A DNA stretch of 33,408 bases from a virus, in UHGV virus genome UHGV-0124208, one strand, 5' to 3'. The translations under genes were made by a program, and so were the position numbers. Every line of letters begins with the position of its first letter. Position 1 is the stretch's first letter. This document shows, in pieces, positions 4,826-33,408 of this stretch. The notes under the pieces were generated by a model that searched no databases, was not told the DNA's origin, and was given only the letters and a program-made list of their open reading frames with translations.

Positions 4826-5318
4826 ACGCTGCCTTGTCGGGGCCGTGCTGGCTATTGCTGCCGCGCTACCGGGTTTTCAGCAGCTTCACACCTCCGTGGA
4901 GGGGCTGAAACTGATTGCCGATTACGAAGGCTGTCGTCTGCAGCCGTATCAGTGCAGCGCGGGTGTCTGGACCGACGGCATTGGTAATACATCTGGCGTC
5001 ATTCCAGGCAAAACCATTACGGAACGACAGGCCGCGGAAGGGCTGATCTCCAACGTGCTGCGTGTGGAGCGGGCACTGGAAAGGTGTGTGAAGCAACAGC
5101 CACCGCAGAAAGTGTATGACGCGGTGGTGTCATTTACCTTCAACGTGGGGACAGGCAATGCCTGCAGTTCCACGCTGGTGAAATTGCTCAATCAGCGGCG
5201 CTGGGCGGATGCGTGCCGACAGTTGCCGCGCTGGGTTTATGTAAAAGGTGTGTTTAATCAGGGGCTGGATAACCGCCGTGCGCGGGAGATGGCCTGGTGT
5301 TTACAGGGAGCAAACTGA
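4806..5318 (+). CDS. Endolysin, lysozyme-type, with N-terminal signal-arrest-release (SAR) segment
   Basis: 170-aa ORF; N-terminal weakly hydrophobic CLVGAVLAIAAALPGF segment followed by an EG...D...T lysozyme-like catalytic pattern (LIADYEGCRLQPYQCSAGVWTDGIGNT). Confidence 0.8.
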   Translation: MNPSIVKRCLVGAVLAIAAALPGFQQLHTSVEGLKLIADYEGCRLQPYQCSAGVWTDGIGNTSGVIPGKTITERQAAEGLISNVLRVERALERCVKQQPPQKVYDAVVSFTFNVGTGNACSSTLVKLLNQRRWADACRQLPRWVYVKGVFNQGLDNRRAREMAWCLQGAN

Positions 5319-5319
5319 A

Positions 5320-5697
5320 ATGAAAAAGAAATTAATCAGCGGACTGTTTCTGATGTTATGGATGGCGCTGTTAATCGCAGCAATGGTGTATCCGCAGGGG
5401 ATTTTTCCGGTACTGGCAGCGTCCGGCGTTTGGGTAGCCTGTTTGCTGACATGGGCGGTAATTCCGGTAGCACTGGCTGCGTTAATTAAGAATGGCCCGC
5501 TCTGGCAGGAGTTGAGGGCATCTTTGCTGAAGACAATTACCCGAAAAGAAAACGTATTTATCAGCTGGGTGATGCGATTGCTGATTGTCGTCAGTCTCGC
5601 CTGGACGGGGTGGGCTATTACCCTGGTCTTTTATCTACTGACCGTTATTGCCTTCTGGATCACCCGTAATCAGATGGCGCAACAGGTAGCAGCATGA
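5320..5697 (+). CDS. lysA: LysA-like lysis-region membrane protein (about 4 TM)
   Basis: ATG at 5320 (MKKKLISGLF...) right after the endolysin stop; the product is almost entirely hydrophobic helices. Position matches P2 lysA. The track start at 5248 lies inside the endolysin gene. Confidence 0.65.
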   Translation: MKKKLISGLFLMLWMALLIAAMVYPQGIFPVLAASGVWVACLLTWAVIPVALAALIKNGPLWQELRASLLKTITRKENVFISWVMRLLIVVSLAWTGWAITLVFYLLTVIAFWITRNQMAQQVAA

Positions 5698-6122
5698 ACC
5701 GGTTGCTGCTGGTTGTGCTGGCGTTATTACTGGCGGCGCTGGGCTGGCAGACGTGGCGGCTGGCTGATGCCAGCCAGACCATCAGCACGCAGGCAGACGA
5801 GCTGCAGAGCAAAAGCCAGGCACTGGCAAAGAGCAACAGCCAGCTTATCAGCCTGTCCATTCTGACTGAAACCAATAACCGGGAGCAGGCGCGGCTCTAT
5901 GCCGAAGCAGAACAGACCAGCACACTGCTGAGTCAACGACAACACCGGATCGAGGAACTGAAACGTGAGAACGAGGATTTACGCCGCTGGGCTGATACTC
6001 CTTTGCCTGCTGACATTATCCGGCTGCGGGAACGTCCGACACTCACCGGAGGTGCAGCTTACCGTCAGTGGTTGTCCGCGAGTGACGCCGTGTCGGCTGG
6101 ATCAGGCAGCGCCGCGCACTAA
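5694..6122 (+). CDS. lysB: LysB / Rz-like inner-membrane spanin
   Basis: 142-aa ORF with an N-terminal TM anchor (LLLVVLALLLAALGW) then a coiled-coil-like Q/E/R/L-rich region; position matches P2 lysB. Confidence 0.75.
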   Translation: MNRLLLVVLALLLAALGWQTWRLADASQTISTQADELQSKSQALAKSNSQLISLSILTETNNREQARLYAEAEQTSTLLSQRQHRIEELKRENEDLRRWADTPLPADIIRLRERPTLTGGAAYRQWLSASDAVSAGSGSAAH

Positions 6123-11044: not shown

Positions 11045-11646
11045 TGGATAACGCCGTATTAAATAGCGAGATTATTGCCACGAAGGCGGGGAATATTACC
11101 GTCTATAACTATGATGGTAAAACTCGGGAATATATTTCTACTTCAAATGAATATCTTGCCATTGGTGTCGGTATCCCTGCATATTCCTGTTTAGATTCAC
11201 CAGTTACACGTAAAGCTGGTTATGCAATCTGCCGTTCTGCAGATTTTAACTCATGGGAATATGTGCCAGATCATCGCGGTGAAATCGTTTTTAGCACCGA
11301 AACAGGAGAATCAAAAGAAATCACAGCACCAGGTGATTACCCTGAAAATACAACCACTATCGCCCCGTTAACGCCATACGATGAATGGGATGGTGAGAAA
11401 TGGGTGACGGATACCGAGGCACAGCATAGCGCCGCAGTAGACGCGGCAGAAGCACAGCGCCAGTCGCTGATTGATGCTGCAATGGCTTCCATTAGTCTGA
11501 TTCAGCTGAAATTACAGGCCGGGCGGAAGCTGACGCAGGCAGAAACCACCCGGCTTAACGCCGTGCTTGATTACATTGACGCGGTGACGGCAACAGATAC
11601 GAGCACCGCGCCGGATGTCATCTGGCCTGAACTGCCGGAGGCGTAG
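11044..11646 (+). CDS. G: Tail fibre assembly chaperone gpG (paired with the currently expressed H tip)
   Basis: 200-aa ORF overlapping the H stop (TAATGG); ends ...DVIWPELPEA, the typical Tfa C-terminus. Confidence 0.8.
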   Translation: MDNAVLNSEIIATKAGNITVYNYDGKTREYISTSNEYLAIGVGIPAYSCLDSPVTRKAGYAICRSADFNSWEYVPDHRGEIVFSTETGESKEITAPGDYPENTTTIAPLTPYDEWDGEKWVTDTEAQHSAAVDAAEAQRQSLIDAAMASISLIQLKLQAGRKLTQAETTRLNAVLDYIDAVTATDTSTAPDVIWPELPEA

Positions 11647-12058
11647 GCCATTCAATATCTGGCGCACCGGAAGTATCGACCAGTTCCAGTGCGTCCAGAT
11701 AATCCAGCCACAAATTATATTGCGCCAGTTCGTCACCTTTCAGACGACCAATAGCCGCTTTACCAGGCCATTGTTTACTGTTCATATAATCGTTGGCCTG
11801 ATTAATCAATTGCTGCTTTTCCAGTTCGGCTGCAGCAATCTGTTCCTCATGTGTTGGTGGTGGAATTTCAGACCATGCAGGAAAACCATTTTCTCCAGCG
11901 ATACGGATTTTTCCTTTCGGCGGTAATCCGGAAAACTCAATATACACCTGCTCATCAACTTCAACAGCATCATCTGGCCATGAGTCAGCTTGAGTGTAAT
12001 CCTCTTTCATCTCCAGCGGATAGAAAGAGTTTGTAGTCGCGGAATATATATAATTCAT
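11618..12058 (-). CDS. Alternative tail fibre assembly chaperone (G'), paired with the silent alternative H tip
   Basis: 146-aa minus-strand ORF convergent with, and overlapping, G; ends ...APDIEWPTPPAVQAR, the same Tfa C-terminal signature. Confidence 0.75.
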   Translation of the reverse strand: MNYIYSATTNSFYPLEMKEDYTQADSWPDDAVEVDEQVYIEFSGLPPKGKIRIAGENGFPAWSEIPPPTHEEQIAAAELEKQQLINQANDYMNSKQWPGKAAIGRLKGDELAQYNLWLDYLDALELVDTSGAPDIEWPTPPAVQAR

Positions 12059-12079
12059 TTCTCATTCCATATAGCTAAA

Positions 12080-12472
12080 TTAACAGCCTAACGCTAAAAA
12101 TGAAGCGCCGAGACCTGGAGTACCGGCTCTGGATATAAATTTAACCGGGTCGGAACTAAAACCTGCACAGGCAATATAACCAACAGCCCCGCTATCTGGT
12201 GTGTAGTCTTGTGAGACCAAAACACGCAGACATCTGTTCGGAAATGCAATCGGGAAATGGGTTACCACATCCTGTGCAATGCCTGGAGTGCTGATTGAGC
12301 CCCACTGAAGAATCAAACCAGATGGTAATTTTTGATATCCAGTACCTGAAACAGAAAGCGTGAAGCTACCCATATCAGGTATCTGATTCGCCCCTGTCCC
12401 CACATTCCTTTTTGCCGCTTCTCCCAAACCAACGTTTATGAAAATGCAGAGATAACGGCTAACTGGCATCAT
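12080..12472 (-). CDS. Alternative tail-fibre C-terminal tip segment (Hv'), promoterless; would fuse in frame to the H constant part after inversion
   Basis: Minus-strand ORF whose N-terminal region spans the 12419-12444 crossover site and encodes the same G-L-G-E junction as H; no independent start is expected (the ATG at 12472 is probably fortuitous). Confidence 0.65.
12419..12444. promoter_or_regulatory. Hin/Gin-type 26-bp inversion crossover site (right boundary of invertible segment)
   Basis: TTCTCCCAAACC-AA-CGTTTATGAAAA; its reverse complement aligns with the 10617 site (core TT, flanking half GGTTTGGGAGAA vs GGTTTAGGAGAA). Confidence 0.7.
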
Positions 12473-12499
12473 CTCCGGTTTTTATTCAGGGGGATGATC

Positions 12500-13066
12500 A
12501 TGCTTATTGGCTATGTACGCGTGTCAACAAATGACCAGAACACCGATTTGCAACGCAATGCACTGAACTGTGCGGGATGTGAGCGGATTTTTGAGGATAA
12601 AATCAGTGGCACCAAGTCCGACAGACCGGGGCTGAAAAAGCTGCTCAGGACACTATCGGCAGGAGACACGCTGGTTGTCTGGAAGCTGGACAGACTGGGG
12701 CGCAGTATGCGGCATCTTGTTACGCTGATAGAAGAGCTGCGCCAGCGTGGCGTGAATTTCCGAAGCCTGACTGACAGTATTGATACCAGCACCCCAATGG
12801 GCCGTTTCTTTTTTCATGTCATGGGTGCCCTGGCTGAAATGGAACGCGAACTGATAGTTGAACGTACCAGGGCGGGGCTGGCTGCAGCTCGTGCTAAAGG
12901 CAGAGTAGGTGGACGCCGTCCTAAGTTGACCAGCGAACAGTGGGCACAGATTGGGCGTTTACTCGAGGCCGGAGAATCAAGACAGCGTATTGCACTGATT
13001 TTTGATGTAGGCGTTTCTACCATTTATCGAAAATTTCCGGCAAATAAGAACAATAAATCTCCCTGA
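12500..13066 (+). CDS. Site-specific DNA invertase, serine recombinase of the Gin/Hin/Pin/Cin family
   Basis: MLIGYVRVSTNDQNTDLQRNAL...GDTLVVWKLDRLGRS...MGRFFFHVMGALAEMERELIVERT... is near-identical in motif content to Gin/Hin as I recall them (catalytic Ser in YVRVS). ATG 12500 chosen over 12494 for spacing to the GGGGG RBS. Confidence 0.9.
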   Translation: MLIGYVRVSTNDQNTDLQRNALNCAGCERIFEDKISGTKSDRPGLKKLLRTLSAGDTLVVWKLDRLGRSMRHLVTLIEELRQRGVNFRSLTDSIDTSTPMGRFFFHVMGALAEMERELIVERTRAGLAAARAKGRVGGRRPKLTSEQWAQIGRLLEAGESRQRIALIFDVGVSTIYRKFPANKNNKSP

Positions 13067-20520: not shown

Positions 20521-21573
20521 TTACGGGGTAATGCCAACCGCTGCCGCCACTTTGTCGCCACTTGGCAGCGTTGCCAGAGGATTGAAACGGAGCGCCGTTT
20601 CCAGATGATCTGGTGCCAGATGTGCGTAACGCATAGTCATTTTTATATCGTGGTGTCCGAGAATTTTTTGTAAGGCGAGAATGTTTCCACCCGACATCAT
20701 GAAGTGCGCCGCAAACGTATGGCGCAGAACGTGTGTGAGTTGACCGCGAGGGAGCACGATAGACGTTTTTTCCATCACGGATAAAAATTGAAAATAGCAG
20801 TCTGTAAAGAAATTGAACCCATCAAGCGCCATGATCTCTTCGTAAAGCTCTTTACTGATAGGGATGCTTCTGTTTTTCTTCCCCTTCGTTCTGACAAAGG
20901 TAATTCGGTATTTGGTCACCTGTGAGCGGGTAAGATTTACGGCTTCACGCCAGCGTGCGCCTGTGCTTAAGCATATCTTAACTACCAGTGCCAGAATTGG
21001 GTCCTGACGTTTGCAATCAGCCAGCAATTCAACAATCTGCTCATGGGTAAGCCATGCCATCTCTTTTTCTGCGATGGTGAATTTTCGCATGTTCTCCAGT
21101 GGGTTCGGATACGACCATTCGCCCAGACGGGATAGTTCGCTAAAAACACTACTTAGATAGCTTTGCTCCAGGTTAATGGTGACCGGGCTTGCTCCTTTCT
21201 TCCATTTCTCGCTGAAGTAGATCTCGCCTGTCAGGCGTTTATCTCGATAGTGGGCAAACATTTTAGAGGTGAGATCGGTTGCAAGAGGATTACCCAGAGC
21301 GTCAACCATCAACAGCAATTTGTCATAGACATGCTGCCCAGCTGTCAGAGATTTACCATGTAGTTTGAACCATAGCTCAACCACGTCTTTCAGTGTTCGA
21401 CGATCCACTGATTCACCCAGCCAGGGCTTTGCTTCGGTTTCTTCTATCGTGTGGCGCTCAAAAGCCAGAGCTTCGCCTTTGGTGGCGAATTGTTTACGCA
21501 CCCGACGCCCACTACGTCCGGCGGGGTAACATTCGCAAAGCCATTTTCCTGTGGTGAGTTTTCGTACTGCCAT
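20521..21573 (-). CDS. int: Tyrosine integrase
   Basis: 350-aa minus-strand ORF; the C-terminus has HVLRHTFAAHF...GHHDIKMTMRYAHL (the R..HxxR..Y tyrosine-recombinase signature); adjacent to attP as in P2. Confidence 0.9.
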   Translation of the reverse strand: MAVRKLTTGKWLCECYPAGRSGRRVRKQFATKGEALAFERHTIEETEAKPWLGESVDRRTLKDVVELWFKLHGKSLTAGQHVYDKLLLMVDALGNPLATDLTSKMFAHYRDKRLTGEIYFSEKWKKGASPVTINLEQSYLSSVFSELSRLGEWSYPNPLENMRKFTIAEKEMAWLTHEQIVELLADCKRQDPILALVVKICLSTGARWREAVNLTRSQVTKYRITFVRTKGKKNRSIPISKELYEEIMALDGFNFFTDCYFQFLSVMEKTSIVLPRGQLTHVLRHTFAAHFMMSGGNILALQKILGHHDIKMTMRYAHLAPDHLETALRFNPLATLPSGDKVAAAVGITP

Positions 21574-21646: not shown

Positions 21647-23416
21647 TCATACGTCAGGGGTAATCCAGTCGACTAAAGCCTCAATACTTTCGAAATCTGC
21701 ACAGATATCTGAAAGAGGTTGTGTATCTGCTTTTGTTTTGAAATCAGCCCATACTGATTCATTTTTTTCTGTAAGACCCAAATGGTTTTCTATCGAACCA
21801 TTTAGCCAAATCCAAATATTTGCATTTCTCAGTTTTGCGGCTAATGATGACAAAAATTCTCTGGCGCCGGGCTTTTGAGACATAATAGCAAATGCTTCAG
21901 CTGCGGTAGTGTTACTACCCTTTGTAGGCAAACCGGATCCATCGAGAGTGCATTCTCCATTAGCATGCATACTTCTCAAGATTTCTTTTAGTCGTAAAAT
22001 ATCCTCGTCATTATGTTCTAAGAAGTTGTTCCTTATTGCACCGCGGAACGCAAAATCTAAATCAACAATTGCTTTTGTAGGTATATCCATTGAATTTAGA
22101 ATTTGCATCGTTTTAGATATACTTTCAACGGACCCTGTTTCAATTAGTGCTATTTGCATCTGACCTAATGTTTTATTTTTAACTTTGTTAAAAATAAATG
22201 GGAGCAGAGTAGTCTCTGTTTTACCTTCTGTTAGTATTACATTGTTAGCAAACAAAACTTTTGAAGACTGTGTTAATGAAAATAAATGGGTTGCTTGTGC
22301 TGGTCGTTGTTCGATTACTTTATTGACTGCTTCTTTTAATGTTAATCTGCAATGAGTGCCACGCTGACTGTTTTTTCTGATTAACACAGTGTCTTTTGCT
22401 AAGTCAGAGGTAATCATTTGAGATGAATGGGTAGAGAAAATTATTTGATATCCATGATGAGATAGTGTTTTTAGAGATTCTCTAATTTGTTCGATAGCAA
22501 ATGGGTGAAGATATAACTCAGGTTCATCTATTAACAGTAGAGTAGTTGTTTTAATATCATCACCGTTGGTTATATCAGCTAAATGTCTTATTAGAGACAT
22601 CTGAATCGAACGCTGTGTGCCATGACCATAAGAAGAACAGTCACGAGCAATGCCGGGAAATGAATCTTCATATACTTTTACAGTCCCAGATTTAAATATA
22701 TCCTTGAAGTCAGGGAGTTCGAAGTGTAGTTTTAAACTTATCCCAGGGAAGAAATCAGCAAGTTTACTACTTATTGAATCATCAATATCATTGAGGTCCG
22801 ATATTCGTTTATTACCGGTTGCAGTCATTCTTCTATTAACGGCATTTAAATGGCTTAGTATCCTTTGAGTGTGCTTCTCTTCTATTTTGCAACTCAATTC
22901 TGCCAGCAACTTACCTATTGTAGTTCCTGTTTTTGATTTTGAAGAATCATCCGCTGCATTTTCCATTGCACCTATACGTATTGGGTCTGGAAATAAAGCT
23001 TTTATCGCATTCTCAATACCCGTTGGTGATGTCCTGAATTCGTTATTTTCTGGGTTTTTAATTAATAATCTGACGTCTTTTGCACTTTGAGCACCAACAG
23101 TCTGTTGACGCTTAAATATCAATACCCCATCAATAATGTAGGGTGAAATTCTAGTTCTGTTTTCTTCTGTTAAAGCTGACAAAATATCTTCAGTAATACC
23201 CTTAACTGTACCTATAACTTCTATAGGGTTATCTGGATTAGTATAATCATCAGAGGACAAAAGTTTTTTCTTAAAAAGCCATTCAATAGCATTTAAAATC
23301 GTTGACTTACCAGCATTGTTGTAACCGATTAAAGGCGTGAATGAAGAAAAATTGATATCAATATCTTTGCAAGATCTAAAGTTTTTTATAGAAATCTTTG
23401 AAAGATGATGATTCAT
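21647..23416 (-). CDS. old: OLD-family ATP-dependent nuclease (N-terminal ABC-type ATPase + C-terminal Toprim), P2 Old-like, single-gene
   Basis: 589-aa ORF. N-terminal Walker A in ISIKNFRSCK...LIGYNNAGKSTILNAI; central FGHGTQRSIQM and LLIDEPELYLHP (Walker B-like); C-terminal VILTEGKTET...VDLDF Toprim-like acidic motifs. AT-rich relative to flanks. Located between cI and int. Confidence 0.75.
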   Translation of the reverse strand: MNHHLSKISIKNFRSCKDIDINFSSFTPLIGYNNAGKSTILNAIEWLFKKKLLSSDDYTNPDNPIEVIGTVKGITEDILSALTEENRTRISPYIIDGVLIFKRQQTVGAQSAKDVRLLIKNPENNEFRTSPTGIENAIKALFPDPIRIGAMENAADDSSKSKTGTTIGKLLAELSCKIEEKHTQRILSHLNAVNRRMTATGNKRISDLNDIDDSISSKLADFFPGISLKLHFELPDFKDIFKSGTVKVYEDSFPGIARDCSSYGHGTQRSIQMSLIRHLADITNGDDIKTTTLLLIDEPELYLHPFAIEQIRESLKTLSHHGYQIIFSTHSSQMITSDLAKDTVLIRKNSQRGTHCRLTLKEAVNKVIEQRPAQATHLFSLTQSSKVLFANNVILTEGKTETTLLPFIFNKVKNKTLGQMQIALIETGSVESISKTMQILNSMDIPTKAIVDLDFAFRGAIRNNFLEHNDEDILRLKEILRSMHANGECTLDGSGLPTKGSNTTAAEAFAIMSQKPGAREFLSSLAAKLRNANIWIWLNGSIENHLGLTEKNESVWADFKTKADTQPLSDICADFESIEALVDWITPDV

Positions 23417-23459: not shown

Positions 23460-24398
23460 TTATTGTATTGTTAAGATAATGCTGGCTATAATTTGAATAT
23501 CCTCAATGGAACACTCAAAATCCTTACTCCCACCAGAAACAAGAATTTTGTTCTTAGGTAAACGAGTTAACTCTTTTAAAGATAACTCATTGTCAATTCC
23601 TACTAACCATTTTCCATCTCTAATTAGGTGAAATTCTTTATCACATATGACATGTTTTTCTCCATTGCTTACAAACATCAAGCTGCTAGTTTCTTGCTTC
23701 GGAAGTAGACACCGATCCATGGATAAAAAACCTGACTCGACAAGCACGCCATTGACCAAATTGAACTTATTTAAAATTACAGTGTTTTCTTCTTGTGAAC
23801 TATTTGGTGTTTCGATTCCTGTAACTAGCCAGGCGAGATCCGCTTTGGTTTCTAATGCGCATTTAATCACCCAATCCGCAGGGAAAGAATCTCGCATGTA
23901 TCGTGTGGCTAATGTGCTTTTTGAAATACCAAGGTGGTCGGCTAAGGCTTGGCGGGTTTTAAACCCGTAAGCATTAACAATCCTCTCTATCGCGGCTTTT
24001 CCTCCGTTAGTAAGCTCAATGTGATTCTCAATGCGGCGCTTAAAGGATGATTGATGAGCGTTGCTGTTAAACCCCTCATGTGGGACTGTTTCATCATGTT
24101 GTTCCACATAAGGGGGGAAACTTTCTTCTGCATTGTTAGAACCAAAGGCCAGCCATTCTAGGGATGCGCCAGTTTCCATTGAACATATAACAACCCAATC
24201 AGCAGGGAAGGTATCGCGTGCATATCTATTAGCCATTGTGCTTTGTGAAATACCAAGATGCTTACAGAAGGCTTGGCGTGATTTGAAACCATAGGCCTTG
24301 AGTATCCTCTCAATGACTTTTTGCCCTCCACGATTCTGCATGACCATAGCTTTCAGACTATCTTCAATATGGCGAAATGTGATTTTTTGAGTTGACAT
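23460..24398 (-). CDS. cI: Immunity repressor CI, coliphage 186 type, with a tandemly duplicated N-terminal DNA-binding domain
   Basis: 312-aa ORF. Residues about 28-85 (VIERILKAYGFKSRQAFCKHLGISQSTMANRYARDTFPADWVVICSMETGASLEWLAFG) and about 128-185 (AIERIVNAYGFKTRQALADHLGISKSTLATRYMRDSFPADWVIKCALETKADLAWLVTG) are two copies of the 186 CI N-terminal domain motif; about 125-aa C-terminal domain. Divergent from apl-cII. Confidence 0.75.
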   Translation of the reverse strand: MSTQKITFRHIEDSLKAMVMQNRGGQKVIERILKAYGFKSRQAFCKHLGISQSTMANRYARDTFPADWVVICSMETGASLEWLAFGSNNAEESFPPYVEQHDETVPHEGFNSNAHQSSFKRRIENHIELTNGGKAAIERIVNAYGFKTRQALADHLGISKSTLATRYMRDSFPADWVIKCALETKADLAWLVTGIETPNSSQEENTVILNKFNLVNGVLVESGFLSMDRCLLPKQETSSLMFVSNGEKHVICDKEFHLIRDGKWLVGIDNELSLKELTRLPKNKILVSGGSKDFECSIEDIQIIASIILTIQ

Positions 24399-26290: not shown

Positions 26291-27144
26291 GCACCATCCT
26301 GAAATGGGCGGGAAATAAAACCGCAATTATGTCCGAACTGAAAAAACACCTTCCTGCTGGCCCGCGACTGGTTGAACCTTTCGCGGGTTCCTGTGCTGTG
26401 ATGATGGAGACGGATTATCCAAGCTATCTGGTTGCGGATATTAATCCTGATTTAATCAACCTCTATAAAAAGGTTGCCGCTGATTGTGAATCGTTTATAT
26501 CTCGCGCCAGAGTTTTATTTGAGATCGCAAACAGGGAGGTGGCTTATTACAACATAAGGCAGGAGTTTAATTACTCCACTGAAATTACTGATTTCATGAA
26601 AGCGGTATATTTCCTGTATCTCAATCGTCACGGTTACCGTGGTTTATGTCGCTATAACAAGAGCAGGCATTTCAACATTCCCTACGGTAATTATAAAAAT
26701 CCGTATTTCCCTGAAAAAGAACTTCGCACATTTGCAGAAAAAGCCCAGCGAGCAACGTTTGTCTGCGCCAGCTTTGATGAAACGCTGGCGATGTTGAAGG
26801 CGGGGGATGTGGTGTATTGCGATCCGCCGTATGACGGTACGTTTTCCGGCTATCACACTGATGGTTTCACTGAAGATGACCAGTATCACCTGGCATCCGT
26901 TCTTGAACATCGGTCATCAGAAGGACATCCGGTCATTGTTTCTAACAATGACACATCCCTGATTCGTTCGCTGTATCGCAATTTTACTCACCACTATATC
27001 AAGGCAAAACGCAGCATCGGCGTGTCAGCTGGCGAGGGTAAATCTGCAACAGAAATCATTGCTGTTTCCGGGCCGAGTTGCTGGTTGGGATTTGATCCTT
27101 CGCGTGGCGTGGATAGTTCTGCCGTGTACGGAGTGTGTGTATGA
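26287..27144 (+). CDS. DNA N6-adenine methyltransferase (Dam/D12 class)
   Basis: From ATG 26287: [11 protein letters not shown]...EPFAGSCAV... (AdoMet-binding region) and VYCDPPYDG (DPPY catalytic motif); overlaps the upstream stop (ATGA) and the A start. Confidence 0.85.
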
Positions 27145-29555
27145 GTCATGACGATATGAACAATTGCAGCGGCTTTAACGAGGCCGCCGCAGCATTTTCA
27201 TGGAACGGCCCGAAAAAGGCCATTAACCCTTATCTGGACCCGGCGGAAGTTGCGCCGGAGTCTGCACTTTCAAACCTGATCACTCTGTACGCTGCCGATA
27301 ACGAGCAGGAACAACTGCGCCGCGAGGCACTGAGTGAGCAGGTCTGGGAGCGTTATTTCTTTAATGAATCCCGTGATCCTGTCCAGCGCGAAATGGAGCA
27401 GGATAAGCTCATTAGCCGGGCAAAGCTGGCGCATGAGCAGCAGCGTTTTAATCCGGACATGGTCATTCTGGCGGACGTAAACGCCCAGCCTTCCCATATC
27501 AGCAAGCCGCTGATGCAACGTATTGAATACTTCAGCAGCCTGGGCAGGCCAAAGGCTTATTCCCGCTATTTGCGTGAGACGATTAAGCCATGTCTGGAGC
27601 GACTGGATTGTGTACGTGACAGTCAGCTATCTGTTTCTTTCCGTTTTATGGCAAGCCATCAAGGGCTGGAGGGTCTGCTGATCCTGCCTGAAATGAGCCA
27701 GGATCAGGTGAAACGCCTGTCCACCCTGGTAGCAGCGCATATGAGCATGTGTCTTGAGGACGCTTGTGGTGATTTGTATGCCACCGATGACGTTAAGCCA
27801 GAAGAAATCCGCAAGACATGGGAAAAGGTGGCAGCGGAAACCCTGCGTCTGGATGTTATCCCGCCTGCGTTTGAGAAACTTCGTCGGAAAAGAAACCGCC
27901 GCAAACCAGTGCCCTATGAACTCATCCCGGGTTCGCTGGCGCGTATGTTGTGTGCCGACTGGTGGTATCGGAAATTATGGAAGATGCGTTGCGAATGGCG
28001 GGAAGAGCAGTTGCGTGCTGTCTGCCTGGTCAGCAAAAAAGCATCCCCCTATGTCAGCTATGAAGCCGTGATGCATAAACGTGAGCAGCGCCGTAAGTCG
28101 CTGGAGTTTTTTCGTTCTCATGAACTGGTGAACGAAGACGGCGACACGCTGGATATGGAAGATGTGGTAAACGCCAGCAGCAGCAACCCGGCGCATCGCC
28201 GCAATGAGATGATGGCCTGTGTTAAAGGTCTGGAGCTTATCGCGGAAATGCGCAGTGACTGTGCCGTTTTCTACACTATCACCTGTCCGTCGCGTTTCCA
28301 TTCCACGCTCAATAACGGCAGACCAAACCCGACCTGGACAAACGCGACGGTAAGACAAAGTAGCGATTATCTGGTCGGCATGTTTGCTGCATTTCGTAAG
28401 GCTATGCATAAAGCCGAGTTGCGCTGGTATGGCGTGCGGGTAGCTGAGCCGCATCATGACGGTACTGTGCACTGGCATCTCATGTGTTTCATGCGTAAAA
28501 AAGACCGCCGCGCCATCACTGCATTACTGCGTAAGTTTGCCATCCGTGAAGACCGCGAGGAGCTGGGCAATAACACGGGACCACGCTTTAAGTCTGAGCT
28601 GATAAACCCGCGCAAAGGTACGCCAACAAGCTATATCGCGAAATACATCAGTAAGAACATTGACGGGCGTGGTCTGGCTGGGGAGATCAGCAAGGAAACG
28701 GGTAAATCCCTGCGTGATAACGCTGAATACGTTAATGCCTGGGCGTCTCTGCATCGTGTTCAGCAATTCCGCTTCTTTGGCATTCCGGGGCGTCAGGCTT
28801 ACCGTGAACTGCGATTGCTGGCTGGTCAGGCGGCAAGGCAACAGGGTGACAAAAAAGCAGGTGCGCCGGTACTGGATAACCCGCGTCTTGATGCAATCCT
28901 GGCTGCTGCTGATGCTGGTTGTTTTGCCACCTACATCATGAAGCAGGGCGGCGTTCTGGTTCCCCGCAAATATCACCTCATCAGAACTGCTTATGAAATC
29001 AACGAAGAACCGACCGCATATGGCGATCACGGTATTCGTATTTATGGCATCTGGTCACCCATTGCAGAGGGCAAGATCTGCACTCATGCGGTGAAGTGGA
29101 AAATGGTTCGTAAGGCCGTTGACGTTCAGGAGGCGGCAGCCGACCAGGGCGCTTGCGCCCCTTGGACTCGTGGCAATAACTGTCCCCTTGCTGAAAATTT
29201 GAACCAACAAGGGAAAGACAAATCAGCTGATGGGGACTCCAGAACGGATATTACCCGTATGAATGACAAGGAGTTGCACGATTACCTGCACAGTATGAGC
29301 AAAAAAGAGCGCCGGGAACTGGCTGCAAGGTTACGCCAGGTGAAACCGAAACGGCGTAAAGACTACAAACAGCGAATTACAGACCATCAGCGACAGCAGC
29401 TCGTCTATGAACTGAAGTCCAGGGGATTTGATGGCAGCGAGAAAGAAGTCGATTTGCTCCTTCGCGGCGGCAGTATTCCGTCAGGAGCAGGCCTGCGTAT
29501 CTTCTATCGGAACCAGCGTCTGAAGGAAGATGATAAGTGGCGGAACCTGTATTAA
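27141..29555 (+). CDS. A: Replication initiator gpA (rolling-circle HUH endonuclease)
   Basis: About 804-aa ORF (ATG 27141) containing [13 protein letters not shown] (HUH-type motif of P2 gpA-family initiators); position as P2 A. Confidence 0.85.
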
Positions 29556-29707: not shown

Positions 29708-29896
29708 ATGCAGGACTATTTTTTGGAGTCTTTGAAGCTCCAGCGCATTGATTTTTTTCTTAAGCTTGTAGCGGCTAGTGAGTGTAGTGATGAAGAGAAG
29801 GGGCTGGCTCTGCAGTGGGTTTCTGAATTGACTGATGAACTCATGGCAAAAATCAGAAGCCACGAATACAACCGCTCAATGGATGTCATCAGCTGA
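29708..29896 (+). CDS. Small SOS-regulated protein, first gene of the Tum-like module (function unknown; candidate antirepressor component)
   Basis: 62-aa ORF with RBS AGGAGG, directly downstream of the LexA box. Confidence 0.55.
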   Translation: MQDYFLESLKLQRIDFFLKLVAASECSDEEKGLALQWVSELTDELMAKIRSHEYNRSMDVIS

Positions 29897-29906
29897 GGTG
29901 ACTTTT

Positions 29907-30140
29907 ATGCGCATTGAAATAATGATCGATAAAGAGCAGAAGATTAGCCAGTCTACCCTGGACGCACTTGAATCCGAGCTTTACCGCAATCTGCGCCCCC
30001 TGTATCCCAAAACGGTAATTCGCATTCGCAAAGGTAGCTCTAACGGTGTGGAACTAACCGGACTGCAACTGGATGAAGAAAGAAAACAAGTGATGAAAAT
30101 TATGCAGAAGGTGTGGGAGGACGACAGCTGGCTGCATTAA
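29907..30140 (+). CDS. DinI-family protein (Tum C-terminal-domain-like)
   Basis: From ATG 29907: MRIEIMIDKEQKISQSTLDALESELYRNLRPLYPKTVIRIRKGSSNGVELTGLQLDEERKQVMKIMQKVWEDDSWLH, which aligns by eye with E. coli DinI (MRIEVTIAK...; ...ILQETWESADDW). Confidence 0.75.
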   Translation: MRIEIMIDKEQKISQSTLDALESELYRNLRPLYPKTVIRIRKGSSNGVELTGLQLDEERKQVMKIMQKVWEDDSWLH

Positions 30141-30332
30141 GAAATGTTGCCCCCAGGAGGATTCATTCTGATGGGGGCTAGTTTGGGCAATGAGTGAAAT
30201 AAGGCGTAAGGTGGGCGGTTATTTTGATAAGTGATCGTCCGCTTTGTGTCAGAAGCAGAAGTGGGAGTGTCTGAGACTCTCTAAAAGTTGATGATTCACT
30301 TACAAAACCATTTTCCTGATGGATGCTTACAC

Positions 30333-30668
30333 TTACGAATGATCATTCTGTTTAGTCTTCATGAGAAAATCCCGAATCTTTGCCAAGTTTGAATTTTCGG
30401 GGATTGAATCCATGTACGGATCACGCTCAAACACTAATTGCTCAGATTCAACGAAAGCCTGCCACTCTACTGGGTCTAGCTCAAATCCCATTGCTGTCAT
30501 ATCACTTTCATCTTCCCCCTCGATCCAGTGGACTAAATAAAACAATTCATCATCAGGAGAATCATCCTCACCATCAACAATATCAACATCGGTTACAGTG
30601 ATACGTAGGGTGGGATCGATTTTTGAGACATAAATTCCTAACTGTGGTATAGGGGGAATATTGTTCAT
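30333..30668 (-). CDS. Highly acidic small protein of unknown function (accessory / moron gene)
   Basis: 111-aa minus-strand ORF with a strong RBS (AAAGGAGTTTCC before ATG); D/E-rich (e.g. DVDIVDGEDDSPDDE, EGEDESD); AT-rich; lies between the DinI-like gene and the putative cos site. Confidence 0.65.
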   Translation of the reverse strand: MNNIPPIPQLGIYVSKIDPTLRITVTDVDIVDGEDDSPDDELFYLVHWIEGEDESDMTAMGFELDPVEWQAFVESEQLVFERDPYMDSIPENSNLAKIRDFLMKTKQNDHS

Positions 30669-31047
30669 GGAAACTCCTTTTATTGGTGTTTGCTATTTGA
30701 ATAAAAATACGCCAAACAGAGTGTTAACTGTGAATATGGAAAGAATCGTTGTAAGTACCCCGCTTAGGTGTCCCATTCTATTTTAGAGGTTCTCGTGCAT
30801 ATGGATTATGTTATCTGAAAGTTAACTTCCGCTTCCCGTTCACAGCGAACATTCATCTTTGTAAACCCGTATGATCCGTTTTTCAAGTGGCCATTCAGAT
30901 ACGGATTTTCACTTCCTTGACAGTGCATGACTATGCTGCATGAAATCGCATGATCGATTGAGGATCGTCTTTGCTCAGATCCGCCAGAACTGGCGGGCTT
31001 TTGCTCATGTCATGCATGTGCATGAAAACCACTGCATAAAGCGGGCA

Positions 31048-31066
31048 GGCGTGGCGGGGATACGAG
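31048..31066. other. Candidate cos (cohesive-end) site
   Basis: GGCGTGGCGGGGATACGAG: the first 13 nt match the 19-nt cohesive end I recall for 186 (GGCGTGGCGGGGAAAGCAT; P2 GGCGAGGCGGGGAAAGCAC). Lies in the only sizeable non-coding stretch between A and Q. The last 6 nt differ, so the exact ends are uncertain. Confidence 0.45.
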
Positions 31067-31155
31067 CGCGCGCTGATGGGGGACGCAGTGCTTTTGGCAT
31101 AGTTATGAGGTAGAATTTCAAAATACTTTTTAGCGCTGTTGGAGGTATAGACAAA

Positions 31156-31701
31156 ATGGACGTTATAACTGGAGTTGCAGAGTTTTTTCGAAAAGTACCT
31201 GCAGCATTTCTTGTGGCTATTACATGTGTTTTAGGTCTTATACTTTTTCTGCCAGACTCTTTGGCAGTAAAAGTGGCTGTTGATGGCTTTCGTAATGAGT
31301 ATAGGATTTTTATTGGACCTGCATTTTTACTGTCTGTATCTTATTTAGTTGCAAGAGTCTATCTCTCTTTCTATGACTTACTTGGTGAAAGGCAGGCTAA
31401 GAAGGTACGCACTTCCTACCTTGAGAAGCTAACAGCAGAAGAAAAAGGATATTTAAAGTCTTATATTACCGAAGGTGTTAATTCACTTATGTGTGGGCCT
31501 GAGGATGGGGTCATGGGGGGACTTGTGGCTAAGGGGATTACTTATAGAGCCACCAGTGTTGGGGATATGATCTACGGTTTTGCTTTCAACTTACAGCCAT
31601 GGGCGCGTGAACATTTAGAGAAAAATAGTCATTTATTAGATGGGGCTATTGGGCGTGCAATGACTCCAAGAGAAAAATTAAACTTTAGATTGGGACGCTA
31701 A
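31156..31701 (+). CDS. Membrane protein with two N-terminal TM helices, unknown function (accessory gene between cos and Q)
   Basis: 181-aa ORF with RBS GGAGG; hydrophobic segments AAFLVAITCVLGLILFLP and IFIGPAFLLSVSYLVARVYL followed by a soluble domain; AT-rich; followed by a strong hairpin. Confidence 0.65.
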   Translation: MDVITGVAEFFRKVPAAFLVAITCVLGLILFLPDSLAVKVAVDGFRNEYRIFIGPAFLLSVSYLVARVYLSFYDLLGERQAKKVRTSYLEKLTAEEKGYLKSYITEGVNSLMCGPEDGVMGGLVAKGITYRATSVGDMIYGFAFNLQPWAREHLEKNSHLLDGAIGRAMTPREKLNFRLGR

Positions 31702-31730
31702 CCAGTCACACATTACCAATGTGTGACTGG
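31702..31730. terminator. Perfect 13-bp stem / 3-nt loop hairpin between the convergent 181-aa gene and Q (putative bidirectional terminator)
   Basis: CCAGTCACACATT-acc-AATGTGTGACTGG read directly, followed on the plus strand by a T-rich run (TGGTGGTTATTTCTTTTATT). Confidence 0.6.
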
Positions 31731-31745
31731 TGGTGGTTATTTCTT

Positions 31746-32783
31746 TTATTCAATGTCAAATTTATATGGTTCAAAAGAAATAACCTTTTCCCCCAACCAC
31801 TCATTTAGTTCTTCGAGTCTTTTTTGTAGCGGTATTAACTCATTACGGACAAAGACGCGGCTGGCTTTTTCCACATCACCAAAGCCGCCGGTATTGTTGG
31901 GAATAATCCCCATCATCTGCGGCGGTACGCGGTGTGCTGCCATCATGTCATCGCGGCTCACGTTCTTAATGTTCAGAAATTCATCCTTTGCTGCAACCTC
32001 AGACAGTGGGATGATCTGGATGCCGTCTTTTTTACCGTTGGGCGAATACATAAACAGGTTGCGGAAGTTGCCCGGACCTTTGGCGCTTTTCATCGCGTTG
32101 CGGAGGTTGTTCACATCCTCCTGGTTCTGCGCGGCGTCAGTCATATACATGATGAAGCCTGCATGGCTGCCGTTGATGTAATACTTACGGCGGAACAGCG
32201 TGGCGGACTCGTTGAGCAGGGCTGACGGAATGGCAGAAAGATAACCGGGCAGGCCGTAGATCTCCTGATTAATATCCGGTTCCATCAGATGAAAAATGCT
32301 GCCTTTCGTGAACTGATACGGCTGGGTTGTCATACCGTATTGCACAAACCAGTAGGTATCCAGGTCTAATCCGCGTCGGGTGTATTTTGCCAGCGCAGGT
32401 TCAAGGGCGATCACTTCACCGAAGCGGTTCGTGCGTTTCTCCAGATAGGCATTGCCAAATACCAGATAGTCCTGCACAAAACGCGAAAAAGCCTGCTGGC
32501 TGAGCAGAGGATGAGGGATATAGGTACTGGTCAGAATGTTACACTTTACTGCAATCGGGGAACTGTGATGCACGGCAGCGCGGAAGGTGCGCGCCAGTCC
32601 GTTAAAGCTGACGGGAGGCTCATACCAGCGGTCCATCTGTACGCATTCCACATAGTCCAGCAGTTCACGGCGGTCCAGAACAGGAACGGGATCGCCGAAG
32701 CTGAATGCTTCGGCTGTAGTTTGACTTTTAAGCTGGATCTGATTCGTCGCCGCAGCGCGGTTCTTCTTACTCTTTCCCATCAA
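31746..32783 (-). CDS. Q: Portal protein gpQ
   Basis: 345-aa minus-strand ORF immediately downstream of, and overlapping, the terminase gene; size and order as P2 Q. Confidence 0.85.
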   Translation of the reverse strand: MMGKSKKNRAAATNQIQLKSQTTAEAFSFGDPVPVLDRRELLDYVECVQMDRWYEPPVSFNGLARTFRAAVHHSSPIAVKCNILTSTYIPHPLLSQQAFSRFVQDYLVFGNAYLEKRTNRFGEVIALEPALAKYTRRGLDLDTYWFVQYGMTTQPYQFTKGSIFHLMEPDINQEIYGLPGYLSAIPSALLNESATLFRRKYYINGSHAGFIMYMTDAAQNQEDVNNLRNAMKSAKGPGNFRNLFMYSPNGKKDGIQIIPLSEVAAKDEFLNIKNVSRDDMMAAHRVPPQMMGIIPNNTGGFGDVEKASRVFVRNELIPLQKRLEELNEWLGEKVISFEPYKFDIE

Positions 32784-33408
32784 AAAATCTCCACAATATT
32801 GCTGGTATTGGCGGATTCGCCCTGCAGCGGTTCGTTAAACAGTGCGTGCATCGTTGCCCAAGCCAGATCGGCGTGGCTGGCTTCTTCGCTGCGGCTGGCT
32901 TCATAGGTCGGGCGGTTGCCACTGGCGGTGGTGGCGCGACGGATTGCCATGAATGACTGCGCAATGTCGGTGTGCCCGGCGTCAAACTCCAGACGGCGGT
33001 GGCTGATAATGTCGTAGGCCTTGAGTACCAGGGCGTTTTTAACGTTGGGGTTGTAGACAAACTCCCGGACGGCAGGAAAGAACGCTTTCACGTTCTCATA
33101 AACCCCGTGACCAACGCCGGTTGAGTCGATACCGATGTATGTCACGTTGTACTGTTCAGTCAGTTTTTTGATGGCGTTAGCCTGGGCGCGGAAGTCCATC
33201 CCGCGCCACTGGTGACGCTCAAGAATGCGGAACTTACCGCCCGGCACGGCTGGCGGTGCCACCACCACGCACCCGGCGCTGTCGCCGTTTTGCGTACCTT
33301 TTGCCGGGTCATAACCGATCCACACTTCGCGCCAGCCAAACGGGCGCAGGGCCAGTGCATGAAAGTCGGTCCAGACTTCCCAACTGTCCACCATGCACGC
33401 CTGCAGCT
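32780..33408 (-). CDS. P: Terminase large subunit gpP, C-terminal portion (208 codons + 2 nt); N-terminal part is at 1..1138
   Basis: Minus-strand ORF open to the window end; positions 33407-33408 plus position 1 form a GAG codon, so the two pieces join in frame (379 + 1 + 208 = 588 codons; P2 gpP is about 590 aa). Confidence 0.85.
   Translation of the reverse strand, partial: LQACMVDSWEVWTDFHALALRPFGWREVWIGYDPAKGTQNGDSAGCVVVAPPAVPGGKFRILERHQWRGMDFRAQANAIKKLTEQYNVTYIGIDSTGVGHGVYENVKAFFPAVREFVYNPNVKNALVLKAYDIISHRRLEFDAGHTDIAQSFMAIRRATTASGNRPTYEASRSEEASHADLAWATMHALFNEPLQGESANTSNIVEIF

Follow-up and report, generated by a model that had tools for sequence, protein, structure and literature searches.

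What role could a small, AT-rich gene for a predicted membrane protein have when it is lodged between the cohesive-end site (cos) and the portal gene of a P2-like phage? The question is raised by the virus genome UHGV-0124208, a stretch of 33,408 nucleotides that was analysed as a whole (the window), in which an open reading frame (ORF) for 181 amino acids fills the junction between cos and the portal gene Q. A first-pass annotation, made from the letters of the DNA, had likened its product to SieB-type superinfection exclusion or abortive-infection morons while leaving the family unplaced. The family can now be named as PF14163, SieB. Judged from its sequence, the protein is a full-length member that carries the SieB family name at NCBI and lies in a published hotspot, with the phenotype extrapolated from the founders of the family. 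The reading that we lean towards is that a P2/186-like temperate phage carries the gene as solitary, exchangeable sieB-family cargo in its cos-proximal gpA-gpQ hotspot, where it would abort infection by foreign phages.

Family assignment of the cos-Q protein

The assignment begins with the Pfam model PF14163 ("Super-infection exclusion protein B"), on which the protein scores 88.4 bits against a cut-off of 26 (E 4.5e-25) and covers positions 2-146 of the 147 in the profile. The founding members, taken from annotated records (34482-35036 of NC_001416 for lambda and 29758-30336 of NC_002371 for P22), reach 103.5 and 101.4 bits on the same model. When the protein is aligned jointly with both, P33, which closes the first membrane helix, falls into register, as do the motif LTxEE..YL, L123 and F142. 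All 130 close homologues bear a precomputed PF14163 label, and the best viral structural match of the predicted fold in BFVD is P22 SieB (Q38660), at a probability of 0.99 but with an E-value of 0.014 and a TM-score of 0.37. Neither PHROGs nor NCBIfam returned anything significant for the protein, and a sequence search of the PDB gave nothing meaningful, its best hit being old yellow enzyme at E 0.17.

In public annotation the same protein already has a name and a place. It is identical (100%) to RefSeq WP_021548667.1, a "superinfection exclusion B family protein" that sits between cos and the portal gene in a P2-like prophage of E. coli TO6, and a second RefSeq accession, WP_000338835.1, represents a 78%-identical allele in the same slot of other E. 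coli prophages. The supplementary table of the gpA-gpQ locus in Rousset et al. 2022 enters WP_021548667 as "SieB" in several arrangements (PMC9122126). SieB is not mentioned in the main text of that study and was therefore apparently not among the systems that were cloned (PMC9122126). Public annotation and a published locus table thus already contain the gene, its family name and the hotspot, and this is not a new kind of system; its value as a discovery is small, that of ordinary swappable anti-phage cargo that has already been annotated.

That the ORF is a real gene under strong purifying selection is indicated by comparison with the 78%-identical allele at the same locus, which gives a dN of 0.163 against a dS of 2.26, the latter being saturated. 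Its start codon and N-terminus are in register with those of 39 and then 124 homologues, and it has a ribosome-binding site of its own, as the first-pass annotation had claimed. The base composition that had drawn attention to the gene is equally real: at a GC fraction of 0.403 it falls below Q (0.506), the neighbouring part of P (0.582) and the window as a whole (0.514).

Close relatives of about 180 amino acids and 50-60% identity occur in the Gammaproteobacteria Vibrio, Pseudomonas, Halomonas, Aeromonas, Methylophaga and Acidihalobacter, as well as in Candidatus Desulfarcum, and the subfamily alignment has 15 invariant columns. A profile search of 1.84 billion cluster representatives returned 2121 at E <=1e-3 and 1063 at E <=1e-10. 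Of the full-length proteins among the best 150 representatives listed, nearly all have 160-215 amino acids and match from end to end; SieB is a family of one gene and one architecture. Adding lambda and P22 SieB to the query alignment and repeating the homologue search yielded nearly the same 120 relatives among the matches listed, and no distant members.

The homologues in Vibrio, Pseudomonas, Halomonas and Aeromonas are solitary; the islands that house them also contain integrases, IS110 transposases, HipA or CcdAB, and have no conserved neighbour of the gene in common. An unannotated ORF on the same strand was noticed just 5' of the homologue in two of the loci, encoding 254 amino acids in Vibrio (4930-5694 of locus L006) and 217 in Pseudomonas (5254-5907 of locus L009). 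A conserved upstream partner gene was considered and rejected: there is no relationship between these two ORFs, and the Halomonas, Aeromonas and P2-like loci have other neighbours at this place. The sieB-family gene is a gene without a conserved partner.

Predicted architecture and presumed mode of action

On modelling, the protein is a membrane hairpin joined by a long basic stalk to a winged-helix-like domain. The two N-terminal transmembrane helices proposed at the outset are recovered as Kyte-Doolittle maxima (19-residue window) of 2.71 at residues 14-32 and 1.66 at residues 51-69, and they are preceded by a conserved N-terminal helix at residues 2-13 (F11, R12, K13, with P15 after it). 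Six lysines and arginines fall in residues 67-95 as against three in the loop of residues 33-50, whose net charge is 0, and this distribution favours a topology with both termini inside. Prediction with AlphaFold depended on the depth of the alignment: with 40 sequences the C-terminal half had a pLDDT below 50, and with 125 sequences the mean pLDDT was 90.1. In the N-terminal part of the resulting model, helix 2-13 and the membrane helix 16-31 are followed by a short loop helix (34-39) and a single long helix (43-90) that unites the second hydrophobic segment with the basic stalk. A compact domain then comprises helix 94-105, strand 110-113, helix 118-125, a hairpin of strands 129-137 and 141-146, and helix 148-161, and the model ends in a terminal helix at 171-180. 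Most of the invariant residues lie in this C-terminal domain (T93, E96, L100, G118, L123, G136, G141, N145, A150 and L154), whose best matches in the PDB are DNA-binding winged helices of the MarR and ArsR type.

SieB is among the oldest phage-exclusion phenotypes. Superinfecting P22-like phages inject their DNA, and SieB then halts macromolecular synthesis midway in their lytic cycle (PMC10883804). P22 is itself protected by Esc, an in-frame, N-terminally truncated product of sieB that is switched on by the sas antisense RNA (PMC12197685, PMC7067206); the esc start is annotated in GenBank at codon 25 of sieB. The protein of the window resembles P22 SieB (NP_059604) and lambda SieB (NP_597779) in its PF14163 membership, its size (181-192 amino acids), its N-terminal helix followed by two hydrophobic helices, the LTxEE..YL motif and subsequent L..KG(I/V) segment in register, and its standing as a solitary prophage gene with expression signals of its own. 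Unlike the founders, it is carried by a P2/186-like myovirus and not by a lambdoid phage, and it lies at the cos-Q junction rather than in the leftward early region next to N/24. Unlike P22 sieB, it shows no internal esc start: ahead of codon 112 the reading frame offers no internal ATG as an alternative start, only a GTG at codon 20 that lacks a Shine-Dalgarno sequence. Among 125 homologues, no conserved methionine was found where the first membrane helix begins. An antisense promoter of the sas type was likewise not detected, there being no sigma-70-like site within 30600-31850, where a weak one is still possible. A further relative, YopH of the Bacillus phage SPbeta, is annotated as a superinfection exclusion B family protein and shares 27.8% identity over 92% of the protein (E 4e-14); it differs in belonging to a Gram-positive siphovirus and to another genome context.

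With the founders as a guide, the following course of events can be proposed. The prophage would express the sieB-family gene from a weak promoter of its own just to the right of cos, and the product would reside in the inner membrane with both termini in the cytoplasm. As with P22 and lambda SieB, the entry of superinfecting DNA would not be blocked. Part-way through the lytic cycle, the cytoplasmic domain would meet a product of certain unrelated superinfecting phages, upon which macromolecular synthesis would be shut down, by analogy most plausibly through the membrane hairpin compromising the membrane. The infected cell would then yield no progeny, and the clone carrying the resident prophage would be protected by abortive infection. 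A trigger made by foreign phage types would spare the P2-like carrier the need for an antidote of the Esc type, and the absence of an Esc/sas layer fits a trigger that this carrier does not make.

The analogy for the membrane step is the Rex system of lambda, a prophage-expressed system acting after entry, the model of which has a membrane component that brings down membrane function once a cytoplasmic sensor is triggered. The likeness is one of working only: the sieB-family protein would join the membrane part and the cytoplasmic domain in one chain, whereas RexA and RexB are two proteins without sequence or family relation to it, and RexB has four membrane helices. It is conceivable, if rather doubtful, that SieB is a one-chain sensor-effector in which the winged-helix-like domain recognises a phage protein or nucleic-acid intermediate and turns the hairpin into a membrane lesion, making it the single-polypeptide equivalent of RexA plus RexB. 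If this were so, the P2-borne subfamily, which lacks Esc and sas, is highly conserved and has a confident model, would give the simplest way in E. coli of approaching the mechanism of SieB, and P2-borne SieB may target other phages than the lambdoid SieB proteins do. The model offers concrete residues and truncations with which to probe that mechanism.

Several points weigh against abortive infection as the role of the gene. Overall identity to the experimentally tested SieB proteins of lambda and P22 is 18-22%; pairwise, lambda SieB is matched at 22% identity and E 0.006, and similarity to P22 SieB is undetectable. Since identity is this low, the transfer of function from the founders rests on remote homology. 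In hhalign, the subfamily profile gave probabilities of 8.6% and 0.3% against the single lambda and P22 sequences, low values that leave the Pfam model, the register of the motifs and the BFVD match as the basis of the link to the founders. No defence-protein model in PADLOC-DB 2.0 matched the protein at E up to 1, and no experiment on this SieB subfamily was found in the literature. To our knowledge, SieB exclusion still has no solved molecular mechanism, and membrane collapse therefore enters the proposal by analogy. The hydropathy maximum of the second membrane helix is only 1.66, which makes this helix a marginal one. Lastly, the idea that the gene has an identifiable promoter was not borne out: a consensus scan of both strands of 30600-31850 found no sigma-70-like promoter and left a TAGAAT hexamer as the only candidate -10 element, and expression of the gene in the prophage is for that reason assumed.

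Two other roles can be set against abortive infection on the features of the protein. The first is that of an inner-membrane protein that stops DNA injection, in the manner of P22 SieA, T4 Imm or P1 Sim, with the infected cell surviving. A small, prophage-borne, predicted inner-membrane protein is of the sort for which SieA-type blocks are well documented (PMC10883804). The homology, however, is to SieB and not to SieA, SieB is described as acting after entry and midway through the lytic cycle (PMC10883804), and the conserved residues are mostly in the predicted cytoplasmic domain rather than in the short periplasmic loop. We consider such a block at entry unlikely. The second role takes the resemblance of the C-terminal domain to MarR/ArsR-type winged helices at face value: the protein would be a membrane-tethered regulator or DNA binder in the style of ToxR and CadC, altering host or phage transcription or anchoring DNA at the membrane, and would serve lysogenic conversion or control of the carrier, not defence. 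This role, too, appears unlikely.

The failure of PADLOC to recognise the protein has a practical side, in that defence-annotation pipelines overlook this SieB subfamily because PADLOC has no model for it.

Exchangeable cargo at the cos-proximal hotspot

The second line of evidence for abortive infection by accessory cargo is the position of the gene. The cos-proximal gpA-gpQ region of P2-like prophages has been defined as an anti-phage hotspot (Rousset et al. 2022, PMC9122126), four validated defence systems were placed at the same position (Vassallo et al. 2022, PMC9519451), and a 2026 survey describes the same hotspot again (PMC13586616). In the window, sieB lies between the replication gene A and Q, a layout that agrees with the annotated RefSeq loci. 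From the end of cos to the stop codon of Q (31746) there are 679 bp, as against 167 bp in P2, in line with the interval of about 680 bp given by the first-pass annotation. Other cargo of the P2 hotspots, such as Old, Tin and Fun of P2, occupies the same genomic niche with a presumed accessory role in exclusion; these are unrelated proteins with unrelated mechanisms.

Rather than being conserved throughout P2-like genomes, the gene is infrequent. A matching P2-like portal/cos region is present in 1288 of 5426 complete E. coli genomes, and sieB is found at the cos-Q junction of 24 of these, 21 with the present allele and three with the 78%-identical one. P2 has no sieB, and nothing else, between cos and Q. 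In 50,697 phage records the protein is absent from every P2-like record, the only matches being SPbeta YopH and a protein of an Akkermansia phage. The same slot holds a 67%-identical sieB allele in P2-like prophages of Citrobacter. Related genomes do carry different cargo at the junction: in a sister prophage that matches the window to the left of cos at 99.5%, a pair of ParA-family and SIR2-family genes replaces sieB, and in a spread sample of other E. coli genomes the junction is occupied by PIN, TIGR02391, DUF4145, LPO_1073/Vpar_1526 or hypothetical genes, or is empty. By the sequences compared, sieB is accessory, exchangeable cargo and not a core gene of P2-like phages.

This distribution bears directly on a third role, that of a component of the carrier's own life cycle such as a packaging or lysis-timing accessory next to cos: although the gene directly adjoins cos and the portal-terminase operon and its two membrane helices recall holins, such a role is highly improbable for a gene with so patchy an occurrence, whose close homologues stand alone in chromosomal islands without phage structural genes, which lies outside the lysis cassette and whose product is far larger than a holin, and a holin or packaging function was rejected on distribution.

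Within 30700-31800, only the conserved cos region matches records of P2-like phages (45 records, 87-91% identity), and it also matches 1268 E. coli genomes. In the ParA/SIR2-bearing sister prophage (locus L016), the match to the window stops about 8-10 bp past the cohesive end. The right-hand boundary of the module near the Q stop codon could not be fixed, as the 3' end of Q also varies.

Within the P2 hotspot lies cos itself, and the cargo on its two sides assorts independently, since the same neighbours are paired with different cargo across cos. Beside the same sieB allele, the gene to the left of cos is an HNH endonuclease in TO6 and encodes a 111-aa phrog_17127 protein in the window; the 78%-identical allele in the same slot adjoins a DUF4145 gene.

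Several neighbouring features of the hotspot were recorded along the way. The acidic 111-aa protein just left of cos (30333-30668, minus strand) matches phrog_17127 at E 2e-70 and has no match in Pfam, PADLOC or NCBIfam. The sister prophage with ParA and SIR2 has a 111-aa ORF, WP_001059831, at the same position left of cos, and Rousset et al. tabulate this accession together with an RVT_1 gene (PMC9122126). At the gpA-proximal edge of the hotspot (29708-30140, plus strand) are genes for a 62-aa protein (phrog_698) and a DinI-like protein (Pfam DinI, E 1.2e-22), the latter 101 aa long according to the ORF finder and 234 bp (77 aa) in matching RefSeq loci. Both genes recur in most of the hotspot arrangements tabulated by Rousset et al. 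(PMC9122126). Inside the conserved region left of cos, a G+C-rich hairpin of 7 bp is followed by CTTTTGCT (30980-30997, plus strand) and is conserved in sieB-bearing and ParA/SIR2-bearing prophages; it could be a terminator that insulates cos or part of the packaging signal.

Expression signals and the remainder of the phage genome

The coordinates of the gene, its predicted domains and its surroundings are collected in Table 1.

Table 1. The sieB-family gene of UHGV-0124208 and its setting, in positions of the window
Feature	Position	Strand	Basis and remarks
Replication gene A	27135-29555		left flank of the gpA-gpQ hotspot; sieB lies between A and Q
Conserved cos region (packaging signals)	30922..31075	.	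common to P2-like phages; to its right, up to Q, variable cargo slot
cos, 19-nt cohesive end GGCGTGGCGGGGATACGAG	31048..31066	.	column-for-column alignment to annotated P2 cosL (NC_001895, 1-19)
Candidate -10 element TAGAAT, weak	31111..31116	+	in 17-nt block GTTATGAGGTAGAATTT; matching -35 not found
Shine-Dalgarno sequence GGAGG	31141..31145	+	read from the sequence; 10 nt 5' of the ATG
sieB-family gene, 181 aa	31156..31701	+	ORF with ATG start; PF14163; identical to WP_021548667.1; dN/dS ~0.07
First transmembrane helix, codons 14-32 (predicted)	31195..31251	+	Kyte-Doolittle 2.71; modelled helix 16-31, pLDDT >90
Second, weaker hydrophobic helix, codons 51-69 (predicted)	31306..31362	+	Kyte-Doolittle 1.66; basic cytoplasmic stalk to residue 90
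Winged-helix-like cytoplasmic domain, codons 94-161 (predicted)	31435..31638	+
Hairpin of 13-14 bp between convergent sieB and Q, probable shared terminator	31701..31731	.	folding and shuffles
Portal gene Q, right-hand anchor of the slot	31746..32783	-	ORF; phage portal protein in matching RefSeq loci

At the position of the Shine-Dalgarno sequence, two other sieB alleles have GAGG and AAGGA. The 17-nt block GTTATGAGGTAGAATTT that holds the candidate TAGAAT is identical in both E. coli sieB alleles, and the rest of the leader has diverged. No Rfam family was found in the window, and no tRNA.

Downstream, the hairpin that the first-pass annotation had described as a perfect 13-bp terminator of the gene stands, with a second user added. 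It starts directly at the sieB stop codon and has a perfect stem of 14 pairs with a 3-nt loop; it folds at -25.9 kcal/mol (z = -6.7), a value reached by 0 of 200 shuffled sequences. The T-tract on its 3' side is interrupted (GGTGGTTATTTCTTTTATT), and the hairpin lies 15 bp past the stop of the convergent gene Q, for which reasons it is best read as a terminator for both converging genes and probably serves sieB and Q alike. P2 has the terminator tQ at the equivalent place after Q, and the 78%- and 67%-identical sieB alleles have weaker hairpins at the same position.

Elsewhere in the genome, a full-length homologue of Old is encoded at 21647-23416 on the minus strand (PADLOC Old, 776 bits; Pfam AAA_15 and an OLD-like TOPRIM domain). 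It lies between the integrase gene (20521-21573) and a CI-type repressor gene, whereas old of P2 is in the cos-proximal gpA-gpQ locus. Together with sieB, this would bring the phage to at least two exclusion-type genes, each in a different hotspot. The repressor-like ORF (23460-24398, minus strand) encodes 312 amino acids with two separate Phage_CI_repr helix-turn-helix stretches and a Phage_CI_C domain. This is unusually long by comparison with CI of phage 186, which has about 190 amino acids, and could reflect an over-extended start or a duplicated DNA-binding domain.

A serine invertase of the Hin/Gin/Cin type (Resolvase and HTH_7) is encoded at 12494-13066 on the plus strand. Adjoining it on the opposite strand are a C-terminal segment of a tail fibre (Gp53-like_C, 12080-12472) and a tail-fibre assembly gene (Caudo_TAP, 11618-12058, minus strand), and the whole of 11618-13066 looks like an inversion switch for host range. 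Joining the end of the window to its start (32780-33408 plus 1 to about 1140, minus strand) closes a 591-aa ORF for the terminase large subunit, which shows the window to be a complete genome of about 33.4 kb in circularly permuted form, with no terminal overlap. The genome belongs to the 186-like branch, with CI and CII/CP76; matching RefSeq loci also carry Fil.
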